Source: a virus (taxonomy: Duplodnaviria; Heunggongvirae; Uroviricota; Caudoviricetes). From it: DNA of 64,000 bases. The notes under the pieces were generated by a model. It ran no database searches. It saw only the letters and a list, made by a program, of their open reading frames with translations, and was not told where the DNA came from. Position 1 is the first letter of the stretch. Every line of letters begins with the position of its first letter. The stretch lies in IMG/VR virus record IMGVR_UViG_2718217789_000006, one strand, 5' to 3'. The translations under genes and the position numbers were made by a program. Shown here one piece after another: positions 18,500-23,580 of the stretch.

Positions 18500-20896
18500 T
18501 TAAGAATCAGCCTGACTCGGGATCAGTTTTTGCCAGATAACTGAAACGTATTTTGCCTGGTAACGGGCGTCATCAAGTGCATTATGGCGCTCACCTTCGA
18601 ATGGAATAGCCGTTCTGGCATCGAAGTCTATGGCTTTCCCCAGCTCAACGATTGTGCGCACATCGCGATCGTTGTAGTAACGCCACGGGCAGGGGATCCC
18701 CTGCCGTTCGTATGAACGGCGCAAAATCGTGTTGTCGAAGTTGGCTCCATTTCCCCAGACCTGAACAAAGAATTCACCGGAGTTTTCGTCGATAAATTCC
18801 CGCAATTGTAACAGTGCATCATCTAACGGGATTTCATCGGTCATAATGGCAGATTGCGCTTCGCGTGATTGCTTAAGCCACCATTTAATGGTGTCCCGAT
18901 CAATGACTCCGCCAGCAGTTTCCAGATCGATAGTCTTACTAAATTCCGGTCCCATATCTCCGGTTTGCGGATCGAAAAATATTGCACCTATTGAGATGAT
19001 CGGGGCATCAGGATTTTTTCCCATGGTTTCAAGGTCGATCATTAGATGGTCACACGTCCTGCTGGTGGATGTGATAACGTGATGACCGTTCACCTTAATT
19101 GAGTGATCTGCCGTCTCGCCAGTTTCATTATCGCTATCGTGATGCTGATTGCCGCCAGTGTTCTCCTTGTGTGGATGTTCAGCGCCTTCCATTTCCTCCG
19201 GATCATCTTCCTGAACTTCAACCAGGTTCTTGTCATCGAATGTTTCCTGGTATGTTGCGTCGCCCATCACCGCGCCACAATCAGGGCAGTTGCCGCCGCC
19301 GGTCTGACCGCAGGTGGTGCAGATCTTTTCCGGTTCCTGTTGCACTACTGGTTCAGGTTGTTTCGTTTCTGGCTGATTCTGGTACACAGAATCGCGGGTC
19401 TGGATCCCCTTAATCCATTTCGGATCATTCGGGTCGCTAATCCCTTCAACAAATTCTCCGCGAGAGGCAGCCAGTAATTTGTCTGCATCGACAGGATTTT
19501 GGGGCGGAATGTTTTTCCGGGCTTCATGGAGTTCTGCCCGCAGTTTCTGATATTTCGCATCAACAGAATTTACCTGTGACTGAGCATCCAGCGGCTGCGT
19601 GTCCTGATGATGTTCAGTTGCATCCGGTTCCACTGTTTCAGCCGTTGCCTGTTCATCTGCCATTGCGCAAGATGGTTGCGGTTTTTCTTCATCATTTTCT
19701 TCTTCTGTTTCCTGCTTAGCAGCCAGTTCGCGGTTAACTTCTTCCAGGATATCTTTTTCCGGTGTATGTCGTGCAGCAGTGAGAGTTTCCTTGCTGGGGT
19801 TCTCGTGATCAGTCTCCGTTAAGTAGGCGTTGATATACCCCTGAAGGCGTCCCGGGTAGTGATAAAACTCAGGGTGAGCGCTCCGGATAAGTGCAAAAAT
19901 AGCGGCGCGGGAATAGTCCAGAATACCCGGGGTTGCGCGAAGTGCTGCGGACCATTCTTTGAACGGACTTTCTCTTTTCAGGACGATTTCTTTTGCGCGA
20001 CGATAAACGCTGCCCGGAATTTCATAAATATTAAAATCCATCGGAAGTGTGGCTGCTGCAATCTCCACATCCAGCGTATCGAAGGTGTGTACTAAATTCG
20101 GATTGCGATCGGTTTTGTTCCCGCCACCGGCATTTGCACCGGAAGCCGTACGGGTGATACGCGAAACACGATTTCCTTTCATCCACTCTTTTGTCAGCAG
20201 ACCCCGATCAGTGTAGTCAGCGTCCAGGTATGCCTCGAAAAAAGCAGTTATCAGTCCCAGGTCTGAATTACCGGGATTAGGGAAAACTTTGTCAGTGTCG
20301 CGTGCCAGTTTATGAAGGTCGCGAATCTCCAGCGGGTCGAGCAGCTTTGTGTTGTGGGAAATGGCCAGGGCAGTAACAGCCGGCAGTTCTTCCGCCCGTG
20401 CTATATGTAATGCCTGAAGTTCTTCCCGTGCAACGTGCGTTACTGGTTTTTCGCTGCCGTGTTGCGCAAGCCAGCGAATGGGCAGCTCCTGACCAGAAAC
20501 CGGCAGGAGCATATTCTCCTCAATCTCCGTCATGTCTTCGCCGTTGACGTTGGTATTGTCAGTACTGGCTGGTTTCTCCTGCACGGAGGGAGAGGGCGCG
20601 ATAAATACCATTGTAATGCCATCTTCCCCGCCTTTTTCGTATCGGTTGCAGAATTCGGTATCAAACACGCCTTCAGGTGGAAGGTCATTCACAACGGGTA
20701 AATGGACGCGAACGGGTTTTTTAAAGTCGTCTTCATCATAATCGTTGTCATCCATTGCGGTAATGCAGCGGGAGATGGCAACAGATAATTTTTTTGCTGT
20801 AGTCCAGTAAAAACCACCTTTAATTCCCAGACGTTTTCTGACTTTGTCATTTTTTGCTTCGCAATATAGCGCAAATTCTTCTTTATCAGTGCTCAT
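18500..20896 (-). CDS. Putative phage exonuclease with C-terminal DnaQ-like (DEDDh) 3'-5' exonuclease domain
   Basis: 798 aa; C-terminal ...[26 protein letters not shown]...[15 protein letters not shown]...[12 protein letters not shown]... fits Exo I/II/III motifs; central CxxC...CxxC zinc-ribbon ([21 protein letters not shown]) and acidic linker. Confidence 0.7.
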
Positions 20897-21011: not shown

Positions 21012-21179
21012 TCAGGTACAGCGATACTTTTTTTTTACCGGGAGGCATTCACCAGAAATTTTTTGCTCGTCTCTTGCCTGGAGGCAGGATTCTTTACTGG
21101 CATAAATTCCGGTAATCACATTCTGTGATTCACCCGTTATAAGAAAAACCGTCATCATCAGTGCAAATGCTGAAGTCAT
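21012..21179 (-). CDS. YdfD-like small protein with hydrophobic N-terminus
   Basis: 55 aa (below ORF-track cutoff), MTSAFALMMTVFLITGESQNVITG...; start overlaps the dicB stop (ATGA); position matches ydfD after dicB in Qin. Confidence 0.45.
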   Translation of the reverse strand: MTSAFALMMTVFLITGESQNVITGIYASKESCLQARDEQKISGECLPVKKKYRCT

Positions 21180-21364
21180 TGACGTTCTCCGAAAATACCA
21201 AGTTCAAGAAGAGCAATTCGGGAAAGTATGGAATTATCATTGAGCAGATAAGGCTCATATTTCCTCATATTAATGGCATCTTCAGTAAACTCCCGGTTAC
21301 TGAGCAGAACACCAATATCAAAACAACCTTCAGACGTATTAACGTTTGGTAATAACGTTTCCAT
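21176..21364 (-). CDS. dicB: DicB-like cell division inhibitor
   Basis: 62 aa, METLLPNVNTSEGCFDIGVLLSNREFTEDAIN...; same length and N-terminus as K-12 DicB as recalled. Confidence 0.7.
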   Translation of the reverse strand: METLLPNVNTSEGCFDIGVLLSNREFTEDAINMRKYEPYLLNDNSILSRIALLELGIFGERQ

Positions 21365-21542
21365 TATCGCGTCCTCAACAATGAATTTTGTGATGCAGTG
21401 CCTGGTGCCTCCAGGTGACGTTAACCAGTTAACAATTAACGCCGGATTAGTTGATGCTCGTTACGCCCGTAAAATACCGCCTTACTGCTTTAACTGTTCC
21501 GCGTGCGCATAGCCGCATTCACCGCATCACAAAATTCACTTT

Positions 21543-21582
21543 AAAAAGGGCGGATATCCGTTTCCGCCGAATCACCAGAAAA
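21543..21582 (-). ncRNA. dicF: DicF-like small RNA (variant)
   Basis: Minus-strand UUUCUGGUGAUUCGGCGGAAACGGAUAUCCGCCCUUUUU: DicF-type 5' seed (UUUCUGGUGA) plus terminator hairpin and U-run, followed by UAAAGUGAAUUUUGUGAUG as downstream of K-12 dicF (recalled); lies between ydfC-like gene and dicB. Confidence 0.5.
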
Positions 21583-21883
21583 GTGATAACAGAGGGCGTT
21601 GCAGCGGGGTTGTCACTTAAGCGTATGGTCAACCTGACAACCCGGTGTCCTCAGCGGGGAAGGAATAACCCCGCCATACTTACCGCCGCGCCATTTCGCG
21701 GATTGCCACAACCGGAAGCGCACGGTCGAATTAAATTTAACGACTACCTACAGAGAGACGAACTTCGCCGTGCGCTTTCGCGTTATGCCCTGACTTTTCA
21801 GGGATATATCCTTTTCAGTAAACTGTCAGTGCCGGATTCTTATCCGTGTCCGGCGCACGCACTCTACCTCACCTGTGAATAAA

Positions 21884-22258
21884 TTAATGATTAATTGATA
21901 TTTTGTTGTTTGATTCAACTTTCCCATCGGATGTGTGATGCTTTAAATCACAGGAATTAATACTGCTTGCTGTAAAATGATTTTCAAGGGGAGCTATTCG
22001 AATCCCTTTCTTTTTCATTAACAAGCCAAATCCTTTATTAATGATGTTCATTAATTCCAGGAAGTATTTTTCATGTAAATTCTGGTTATCAGAGAGCTGC
22101 TTCTCTTCGCACAGACCGATAAAGGCACGACGCACGTTACCGGATATAGTATCGATGGTTTCTTTTTCTACGGTACTCAGGTCAAGAGTCGCCAGTTGGG
22201 AACGAACTATATTCGCTGCCATTTCCTGGAATTGCATTGGTAAATCTTTAAATTCCAT
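21884..22258 (-). CDS. Hypothetical 124-aa protein (AT-rich insertion in the dicB operon)
   Basis: GAGG RBS 7 nt upstream; start 22 nt after the ydfC-like stop; MEFKDLPMQFQEMAANIVRSQLATLDLS...; low GC versus flanks; no family recognised. Confidence 0.5.
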   Translation of the reverse strand: MEFKDLPMQFQEMAANIVRSQLATLDLSTVEKETIDTISGNVRRAFIGLCEEKQLSDNQNLHEKYFLELMNIINKGFGLLMKKKGIRIAPLENHFTASSINSCDLKHHTSDGKVESNNKISINH

Positions 22259-22280
22259 TATTAGCCTCGTTGGTTAGCTA

Positions 22281-22499
22281 TTAACGCGGGTATGTAATCA
22301 TTCTGGCAATGCTTAATGCCGCTGCTTTTTCCAGATTAGTGATATCCTGCTCCAGAGCGGACAGATTTTCAGCCTGCTTAGCCCTGGCTTCATTGGCCCA
22401 TTTCAGATCCTGCGCTGCATTAATTTTCTGGTGCATCCACTCATAAAGTTCATCATCGGTATAGTCTGGCGCGATGATGACGGGTTCTCGTTTCTGCAT
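22281..22499 (-). CDS. YdfC-like protein
   Basis: 72 aa (same length as K-12 YdfC), MQKREPVIIAPDYTDDELYEWMHQKINAAQ...; position in the dicB-type operon. Confidence 0.5.
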   Translation of the reverse strand: MQKREPVIIAPDYTDDELYEWMHQKINAAQDLKWANEARAKQAENLSALEQDITNLEKAAALSIARMITYPR

Positions 22500-22528
22500 A
22501 CTGATTCCTCGCGGTGCTGTTTCGCTTA

Positions 22529-22657
22529 TCAGCCGTTAGATTTTGCCGAACTGGAAAGCGCCTGTTTAAATTCGTTGAAGCTGAGAGCTTCTTCGCCTTC
22601 GGCAAGACCTTCGAAGTATTCTTCGTAAGCCTTTTCCATGATTGTGTCGAAATCCAT
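22529..22657 (-). CDS. YdfB-like small protein
   Basis: 42 aa (below ORF-track cutoff), MDFDTIMEKAYEEYFEGLAEGEEALSFNEFKQALSSSAKSNG; AGGTGAG RBS; same length and position as K-12 YdfB. Confidence 0.45.
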   Translation of the reverse strand: MDFDTIMEKAYEEYFEGLAEGEEALSFNEFKQALSSSAKSNG

Positions 22658-22658
22658 A

Positions 22659-22814
22659 TCACTCACCTGAGTTTCTTTCCAGCCAGCGACGGGCACCATT
22701 TTCGGTTTTAAACGTTTTGCTTTTGGTATACGTCATCGCGGTGAACGTACCGTCCTGGTTGGGGAACACGCCACATACCAGAGATTCGCTGTTGCCAAGA
22801 TCGATAGTATCCAT
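22659..22814 (-). CDS. YdfA-like small protein
   Basis: 51 aa from internal ATG with GAGG RBS (MDTIDLGNSESLVCGVFPNQDGTFTAMTYTKSKTFKTENGARRWLERNSGE); stop overlaps ydfB-like start. Confidence 0.5.
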   Translation of the reverse strand: MDTIDLGNSESLVCGVFPNQDGTFTAMTYTKSKTFKTENGARRWLERNSGE

Positions 22815-23000
22815 GCTGACCTCATTTCCCCTTAACGCCGGGGTAGCGGAACAAAAACCTGCTGCATAGTTATTAAAGTTGAACCCTGCCGTCATGTTCT
22901 TACGCCTCGGGCTGGCTACTTAACCCCTGACCACTGCCTGGTAACTCGAAGTATTGCCCTGCATTCTGTGGGGCGGGGTGGGTTGGTATGAAAAGAAGGA

Positions 23001-23037
23001 TACCCATAGGTATTTAAAAAGTAAATACCCATGGGTA
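23001..23037. promoter_or_regulatory. Pair of 12-bp palindromic operator-like sites between repressor gene and dicB-type operon
   Basis: TACCCATAGGTA (23001..23012) and TACCCATGGGTA (23026..23037), perfect palindromes 25 bp centre-to-centre, upstream of the ydfA-like gene. Confidence 0.45.
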
Positions 23038-23079: not shown

Positions 23080-23499
23080 CTATGATGCGTTTTGTGCTTT
23101 CTTTTTACGGATTTCTTCGTAGATCATATTGTAATACTGTTTTTTCTCTTCAAGAGTTTTTAATAATTTATCCGCTTCACTTTCTGGCAGTTCGTCTAAG
23201 AGATCTAAAAAAATACGTTGTCGTGGCGTTAGAACCCTTGTTTCATAACTGGAGGCTGTGTTCGTTGATGATGAAACGATACCATCCATCCATCCCCGGG
23301 GTAACCCAAAGGACTCTTCGATAATCTCCACCATATCATCAGCGATCCGTTTTTTTCCCTTTTTCCCCTCTGGGTACAACATTCTTGATACATAAGAAGG
23401 CTCGCGCCCGATCTTTCTGGCCACGTTAACCGCTTTACCATCGCATTTCTCATCACGAATTTTGATGAGTTGCTGTCGTCTAAATTCATATTTGTCCAT
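23080..23499 (-). CDS. Prophage repressor (DicA/RacR/CI-type HTH protein)
   Basis: 139 aa; HTH-like ...AVNVARKIGREPSYVSRML...; C-terminal ...LDELPESEADKLL... resembles DicA ...ALPESEQD...; divergent from a Cro-like gene. Confidence 0.7.
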   Translation of the reverse strand: MDKYEFRRQQLIKIRDEKCDGKAVNVARKIGREPSYVSRMLYPEGKKGKKRIADDMVEIIEESFGLPRGWMDGIVSSSTNTASSYETRVLTPRQRIFLDLLDELPESEADKLLKTLEEKKQYYNMIYEEIRKKKAQNAS

Positions 23500-23580
23500 A
23501 GGTAAATAATAGATGCGATTACCGCAAGGTAAACAACCTGTGGGTATTGGCTTTTGTTTACCTGTGGGTATTCTTTGCTG
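23500..23580. promoter_or_regulatory. Divergent promoter/operator region between repressor and Cro-like gene
   Basis: CCATAGGTA half-site and two direct copies of CCTGTGGGTATT (reverse complement TACCCACAGG, a one-base variant of the palindrome core at 23001..23037). Confidence 0.4.

Follow-up and report, generated by a model that had tools for sequence, protein, structure and literature searches.

ORF124, an accessory gene with a conserved N-terminus and exchangeable C-termini in the dicB-type early-left operon of lambdoid prophages

The stretch of DNA considered here, referred to throughout as the window, comprises 64,000 nucleotides (nt) of the IMG/VR virus record IMGVR_UViG_2718217789_000006 (Caudoviricetes). 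Its minus strand carries a dicB-type operon in the order DicA-like repressor, ydfA, ydfB, ydfC, an open reading frame of 124 amino acids (aa) termed ORF124, an untranslated leader, a DicF-like RNA, dicB, ydfD and an exonuclease gene. ORF124 starts with ATG and ends with TAA. The queried 1.3 kb around it (21400-22700) are 100% identical to Escherichia coli 2013C-4991, where RefSeq gives names to ydfB, ydfC and dicB and lists ORF124 as WP_000394532.1, 'hypothetical protein'. As set out below, ORF124 is a genuine protein-coding gene under purifying selection, and it forms an accessory cassette within a lambdoid prophage's early-left operon, which is under repressor control. The following features belong to the gene itself.

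21884..22258, minus strand: ORF124 coding sequence (open reading frame list; RefSeq WP_000394532.1; PHROG 6937; frame intact in orthologues)
22265..22268, minus strand: Shine-Dalgarno sequence GAGG, 6 nt 5' of the ORF124 ATG (read from the sequence)
22094..22258, minus strand: N-terminal domain of ORF124, codons 1-55 (alignments, N-terminal PHROG matches, AlphaFold2)
21887..22093, minus strand: allele-specific C-terminal module of ORF124, codons 56-124 (search with the C-terminal module, AlphaFold2, dN/dS, GC content)

A preliminary description of this DNA, made from the letters alone, had noticed a 124-aa gene with a good ribosome-binding site. Both parts of this were confirmed, by the GAGG motif 6 nt upstream and by the conservation of the frame. 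A scan of viral contigs yielded 80 IMG/VR loci with full-length orthologues of 82-100% protein identity and, together with loci of E. albertii and E. coli, these make up a set of 83 orthologues, in all of which the 124 codons are kept intact. Among 34 distinct nucleotide alleles, the proportion of differences was 0.154 at synonymous sites (pS) and 0.036 at nonsynonymous sites (pN), and the ratio of nonsynonymous to synonymous rates (dN/dS) was 0.21. By segment, dN/dS was 0.18 both in codons 1-55 and in codons 56-89, and 0.27 in codons 90-124, which encode a tail predicted to be disordered. These values are averages over non-independent pairs, but purifying selection in the ORF124 frame is clear despite this.

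A non-functional or spurious frame, left as junk at a mosaic junction, would be in keeping with the lack of a characterised homologue and with the strong AT bias and predicted disorder of the C-terminal half. However, this explanation is scarcely credible, as the frame is kept in 83 of 83 orthologues with a dN/dS of about 0.2 in every segment, the ribosome-binding site is canonical, 124 AT-rich codons without a stop are unlikely to arise by chance, and the domain motif is conserved across genera down to about 25-30% identity.

The base composition had been described as much poorer in guanine and cytosine (GC) than that of the neighbouring genes. With 36.8% GC, ORF124 does lie far below ydfC (47.0%), ydfB (45.0%), ydfA (49.4%) and the leader (about 55%), whereas dicB (37.6%) and ydfD (41.7%) on the other side are AT-rich to the same degree, and the statement therefore applies to the upstream genes and the leader only. 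Within ORF124, the AT-richness is found in the second part, with 44.8% GC in codons 1-55 and 30.9% in codons 56-124.

The surrounding operon and its presumed control sites consist of the following elements.

23536..23572: two direct operator-like copies, ACCTGTGGGTATT, 24 nt apart, related to the repeat at 23000..23037
23080..23499, minus strand: 139-aa repressor-like gene with a C-terminus resembling DicA (NCBIfam DicA C-terminal, E = 1.9e-5, below the family cut-off)
23000..23037, between the repressor gene and ydfA: operator-like 16-nt inverted repeat, TACCCATAGGTATTTA / TAAATACCCATGGGTA
22659..22814, minus strand: ydfA/DUF1391 as annotated by RefSeq (Pfam, RefSeq)
22529..22657, minus strand: ydfB (RefSeq annotation)
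22281..22499, minus strand: ydfC (RefSeq annotation; PHROG 1744)
21582..21883, minus strand: untranslated leader of about 300 nt from ORF124 to DicF (K-12 alignment)
21543..21581, minus strand: DicF-like short RNA of 39 nt (alignment; seed TTTCTGGTGA, terminator hairpin, T-run)
21176..21364, minus strand: dicB (Pfam DicB PF05358, E = 6.4e-37)
21012..21179, minus strand: ydfD-like DUF1482 gene (Pfam, E = 2.3e-14)
18500..20896, minus strand: 798-aa exonuclease gene (Pfam)

The repressor gene has the same orientation as the operon, as has dicA in Qin. The early-left promoter is presumably controlled through the inverted repeat at 23000-23037, and the two repeat sites flanking the 139-aa repressor gene are likely to represent the OL- and OR-type control sites of the immunity region. 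ORF124 starts 22 nt after the ydfC stop codon. In a consensus scan, only a weak 9/12 promoter-like match, overlapping the ydfC stop, was found in front of it, and no terminator was found 3' of it up to the DicF hairpin, the sole terminator-like site downstream; the numbers of promoter- and terminator-like sites around the gene were not above those in shuffled sequence. As no convincing promoter or terminator flanks ORF124, it is probably co-transcribed with ydfA, ydfB, ydfC and the DicF precursor, and the operator-like repeats, the tight spacing and the missing promoter and terminator together point to repressor control of this transcript. If ORF124 is co-transcribed from a promoter under the adjacent repressor, it would be silent in the lysogen and produced on derepression together with DicF, DicB and YdfD. 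A classical moron, meaning an autonomous unit, was considered and rejected, since the consensus scan found neither an own promoter nor an own terminator, which is suggestive.

The ydfA frame extends, without a stop, over 78 codons if read from an ATG further upstream (22659-22895, minus strand), and the RefSeq gene corresponds to the last 51 codons, the DUF1391 domain.

ORF124 had also been placed just upstream of a DicF-like small RNA. It is indeed upstream, but about 300 nt away, and the RNA is a 39-nt variant that fails the Rfam model. This RNA, TTTCTGGTGATTCGGCGGAAACGGATATCCGCCCTTTTT, keeps the 5' seed TTTCTGGTGA and the terminator and is without 19 nt of the K-12 body; the Rfam DicF model gave no match in the window even at E<=1, while the K-12 DicF control scored 76.7 bits. 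The same short DicF occurs in 11 fetched loci, E. albertii included, and the DicF variant of O157:H7, which has a different body, falls below the Rfam threshold too. DicF is reported to pair with ftsZ and pykA through its 3' region and with xylR through its 5' end (PMC5069750). Since the missing 19 nt include the reported ftsZ- and pykA-pairing region, the short DicF may have lost control of ftsZ.

The leader between ORF124 and DicF (21582-21883) is homologous to the ydfC-dicF spacer of K-12. Its conservation exceeds that of the coding genes on either side, per-column variability being mostly below 3%, and its fold z-score is -3.7. A convergent antisense reading frame at the 3' end of ORF124, annotated in some RefSeq genomes as WP_000202162.1 and WP_000920491.1, was rejected as a conserved protein; it is probably no real protein, because indels of 1-3 nt in the leader shift its frame between alleles.

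Elsewhere in the window, further RNA elements were noted. The spacer between DicF and dicB (21332-21550, minus strand) has a weak, sub-threshold Rfam match to STnc100, with 31 bits where the gathering score is 47, and a full copy of STnc100, scoring 148 bits, is located at 34708-34908 on the plus strand; as both match STnc100, they have an RNA or sequence element in common. A sok antitoxin RNA (61 bits) at 28169-28349 on the plus strand suggests a hok/sok locus.

Across genomes, ORF124 is an optional part of the operon. Alignment to K-12 Qin reveals a clean presence/absence difference of about 375 bp directly after ydfC, between flanks of about 90% identity, which agrees with the earlier statement that the operon follows the K-12 Qin order apart from one extra gene. 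The arrangement without the cassette is found in K-12, CFT073, ST131 and UTI89, and the dicB operon in the UTI89 filamentation screen is one without ORF124. Some part of the 1.3-kb dicB-operon query was matched in 4739 of 5426 complete E. coli genomes. ORF124 was present at >=80% coverage in 723 of them, and the gene is thus not a constant member of dicB-type operons; its presence in all of them, which would have refuted the preliminary description, was not observed. At least a part of ORF124 was found in 1357 of the 5426, typically the 5' end encoding the N-terminus, and about 630 have the 5' part alone. A scan of one genome per species found the gene in E. albertii only.

In the 80 IMG/VR loci, ydfA, ydfB and ydfC lie upstream of ORF124 where present and, wherever the contig reaches, the DicF leader and dicB (once kilR) lie downstream. 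In about half of these loci, ydfB and ydfC are absent and ORF124 directly follows ydfA with overlapping stop and start codons (ATGA). Because of these loci, a place between ydfC and DicF is only one of its arrangements. The claim of an insertion there describes the window correctly and not the family of loci as a whole, in which ORF124 is a mosaic cassette in a variable slot that may reflect either insertion or deletion.

In the databases, ORF124 is already catalogued. PHROG 6937 matches the entire protein (residues 1-124 of 124, E = 4.5e-76), and matches to PHROGs 1363, 2151 and 9419 cover the first 50-64 aa (E-values of 8e-24, 1e-10 and 2e-8); PHROG 33007 also contains this N-terminal domain. 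All five are annotated as 'unknown function', and membership therefore tells nothing about function. No match was obtained in Pfam or NCBIfam, nor at E<=1 among the defence models of PADLOC-DB 2.0. The earlier remark that no family could be recognised for this protein is thus right with regard to Pfam, NCBIfam and PADLOC, but has to be amended with regard to the PHROGs. Likewise, the database and structure searches that had been proposed gave no informative fold match, but did return a PHROG family.

Every member of this family has a common domain, which corresponds to codons 1-55 of ORF124 and has the signature MEFKDLP...NVRRAFIGL..EEK, with M1, F3, K4, D5, L6, P7, A14, V42, R43, F46 and L49 invariant or nearly so. 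When 1.84 billion representative proteins were searched with a profile, only 58 clusters were returned (E<=1e-3). The domain sits at the extreme N-terminus (residues 1-50/65) in nearly all of these, and it is followed by at least ten unrelated C-terminal modules, with total protein lengths of up to 208 aa in this search. All members are named 'hypothetical protein' in the source records, and all hosts are enterobacterial (Escherichia, Salmonella, Enterobacter, Providencia and Atlantibacter). To look for an informative fusion, 61 members of the family were scanned with Pfam, which returned sub-threshold noise only.

When the C-terminal module of ORF124 was searched alone, it was found only joined to this N-terminal domain. 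The C-terminal modules of the 147-aa class of Shiga toxin 2a (Stx2a) phages, the 135-aa class of O157:H7 and a 133-aa class match PHROGs that are without the N-terminal domain (phrog_25397, 23433, 30817, 12693, 2982 and 32391, all of unknown function; matches of L003 5001-5444, L008 2235-2642 and P0100). Therefore, this reflects real shuffling of domains among small early-region phage proteins.

The relatives are found in comparable places. The 135-aa protein of O157:H7, the 147-aa protein of the Stx2a phage and a 212-aa protein of STEC383 fall in PHROGs 1363 and 2151. The slot after ydfC is also occupied by the O157:H7 135-aa protein and by the PPompW protein, and the STEC383 relative has the same slot, with an upstream neighbour annotated as hypothetical only. 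The Stx2a-phage relative belongs to the early-left accessory region, where it has a DUF2303 gene on one side and a PAPS-reductase gene on the other, and an Ea22-like gene is close by. In E. coli and Salmonella, the divergent members are preceded by a DicA-like helix-turn-helix repressor and followed by DicB or KilR and a gene of the exonuclease VIII type. Altogether, an early-left location 3' of the immunity repressor is common to the window, the 80 IMG/VR loci, the divergent E. coli and Salmonella members and the Stx2a phage.

One further, metagenomic relative, P0166 (149 aa; L010 1037-1486, a contig of Logan SRR23513778), has within one reading frame a YdfC-like N-terminus, which matches YdfC of the window with a BLASTP E-value of 1e-9, fused to the N-terminal domain of the family. 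This might be a genuine fusion or a read-through; either way, it indicates that the adjacency of ydfC and the family has been kept in a divergent lineage.

Two AlphaFold2 models of ORF124 were calculated, with a predicted local distance difference test (pLDDT) score of 63 and 69, the later one with a 61-sequence alignment. The predicted elements are the following.

Residues 8-23 and 32-55: helical hairpin, pLDDT 86-92
Residues 59-84: third helix, pLDDT 60-73
Residues 90-124: disordered tail, pLDDT below 50

The predicted hairpin is acidic (isoelectric point, pI, 4.65), the predicted third helix is basic (pI 9.7), and the tail ends in a conserved ISINH. A Foldseek search of the models against the PDB gave E-values above 2 only, and the best E-value of a profile search against PDB sequences was 0.2. 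The fold search in BFVD had as its sole return an uncharacterised 52-aa protein of phi191, which is itself a family member. Neither a DNA- or RNA-binding fold nor a catalytic motif was recognised in the fold and PDB profile searches. Furthermore, no membrane span or secretion was predicted, the maximum of the Kyte-Doolittle 19-residue window being 0.53 and the grand average of hydropathy -0.40. According to these predictions, the ORF124 product is a small, soluble, helical protein.

The best explanation that can be offered for these observations, with a probability of roughly 0.4, is that ORF124 encodes a small soluble binder of a host or rival-phage protein that is made on derepression of the prophage. 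The protein would act by stoichiometric binding to a host protein or a protein of a competing phage; the common hairpin might serve as a scaffold or for oligomerisation, and the C-terminus, which is swappable, might set the target. Its neighbours DicF and DicB are host-directed effectors (PMC5069750). As the role of such a binder, host takeover or counter-defence is tentatively preferred. On the host-killing or anti-defence functions that the preliminary description had named as frequent among genes of this operon, the results speak neither for nor against.

Several points weigh against this explanation. ORF124 has no characterised homologue and no PADLOC, Pfam or NCBIfam match, and its expression, timing and binding are deduced from where the gene lies. 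The 124-aa allele was found in none of 50,697 sequenced phage records, 54 of which contain a protein sharing residues 1-49/59 only; as the allele is missing from these records, it may matter mainly in resident or defective prophages. Conservation of the N-terminal DNA could also come in part from recombination, if this DNA serves mosaic phages as a junction, although the motif of the domain persists in relatives that are only 25-40% identical.

A more specific form of the idea assigns separate tasks to the two parts of the protein. The N-terminal hairpin would then be an adaptor that docks one conserved partner, either a host hub or a phage neighbour such as YdfC, and the ten or more C-terminal modules would be polymorphic effectors against different host defences or functions. 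In this detailed form, the proposal is rather unlikely.

The position of the family next to repressor genes and DicF might instead suggest a regulator acting within the phage, as part of a repressor/anti-repressor switch or in processing or stability of the DicF precursor. The family is always near the immunity region, in one Salmonella prophage a member is the first gene after the repressor, and a conserved, strongly folding DicF leader follows in the fetched dicB-type loci with a spacer that could be examined. However, the same allele of the N-terminal domain occurs with two types of repressor, the K-12-type DicA and the 139-aa protein, and is thus not matched to immunity specificity. Moreover, no DNA- or RNA-binding fold was detected, and the Stx2a-phage members lie at a great distance from the immunity region, with no DicF near them. 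A regulatory role of this kind is therefore regarded as quite improbable.

The preliminary description had compared the position of ORF124 to that of kilR in Rac. This comparison did not hold. In K-12 Rac (L094, NZ_CP010440.1 2170000-2182000), the order is racR, ydaG, ydaF, sieB on the opposite strand, and kilR, and YdaF is a close homologue of YdfA (DUF1391). Because the slot after ydaF holds sieB, it is sieB that is the positional analogue of ORF124 in Rac; according to this order, dicB and kilR occupy the same slot, and the slot of ORF124 is an accessory hot-spot. The slot of dicB is likewise taken by kil/kilR in TW11681 and in a Salmonella prophage, 3' of DicF or of a family member. Since kil/kilR has the place of dicB and occurs together with the family, it does not correspond to ORF124. 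A maximum-sensitivity profile search of six-frame translations for a homologue of ORF124 in Rac and Qin of K-12 (ydaF, ydaG and others) gave no candidate below E = 1.

These positions bear on the possibility that ORF124 is an inhibitor of growth or cell division, i.e., a kil-type toxin that arrests the host on induction. The gene has its operon in common with three known toxic products (DicB, DicF and YdfD), is of the size class of DicB and KilR, and is optional and repressor-controlled like these. On the other hand, there is no homology to DicB or KilR and no Pfam match, and yet another division inhibitor, the third or fourth, would be superfluous, as kil/kilR and dicB co-occur with it in a slot of their own. 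The many unrelated classes of C-termini also argue against a single conserved target such as FtsZ, so that a toxin of this type seems unlikely.

With sieB in the equivalent slot of Rac, a role in superinfection exclusion or defence might be considered as well, in which different invaders would be followed by changes of the variable C-terminus. Arms-race genes typically show presence/absence polymorphism and swapping of modules, and DicB has been reported to protect against phage infection. However, expression of ORF124 is not expected in the stable lysogen, as it lies on the repressed early-left strand without an own promoter, whereas sieB is on the opposite strand. SieB is a membrane protein, but ORF124 has no membrane segment, and a PADLOC match was not obtained. 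An exclusion gene is consequently doubtful, and the binder of a host or rival-phage protein remains the preferred explanation.

Published literature was searched via the RefSeq accessions, the PHROG identifiers and the ydfA/ydfB/ydfC neighbourhood, and nothing on ORF124 was found. ORF124 is thus already catalogued but uncharacterised, and its family is narrow and modular with members in O157:H7 prophages and Stx2a phages. What is added here is the selection on the frame, the N-terminal hairpin with exchangeable C-termini, the early-left context and the corrected positional analogies. ORF124 is one of many uncharacterised small prophage genes, which makes it a reasonable candidate for screening and not a surprising one. 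The dicB locus is found in most E. coli genomes, and to our knowledge no function has been assigned to its genes ydfA, ydfB and ydfC, which are promoter-proximal. If ORF124 is host-directed, it would be a new player in an operon that already encodes three growth-affecting products. If the family acts in induction, takeover or competition between phages, this could bear on the biology of Shiga-toxin phages and, in case the N-terminus is an adaptor for variable effectors, a previously unrecognised family of modular effectors would exist in enterobacterial temperate phages. In any case, a conserved N-terminus with exchangeable C-termini provides a natural experiment for mapping function to modules.

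In comparison with known systems, DicB (PF05358) and KilR/Kil resemble ORF124 in setting, being small, located in the early-left operon, repressor-controlled and optional in prophages. They differ from it in that they have no sequence similarity to ORF124, which matched neither the Pfam KilR profile nor the DicB profile PF05358, and in that their slot is downstream of DicF, where they co-occur with ORF124 and do not replace it. In Rac, sieB takes the equivalent slot between ydaF and kilR, but is encoded on the opposite strand and is unrelated in sequence. The accessory genes of the early-left region of lambdoid phages, such as ral, cIII and kil of lambda, the exo-xis/ea region and Ea22-like genes, are small, non-essential and mosaic in their presence and absence. 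They have a similar type of location, but no homology to ORF124 was detected. Unlike these other early-left accessory genes, the family of ORF124 combines a conserved N-terminal hairpin, as predicted, with a swapped C-terminus, and this combination is particular to it.

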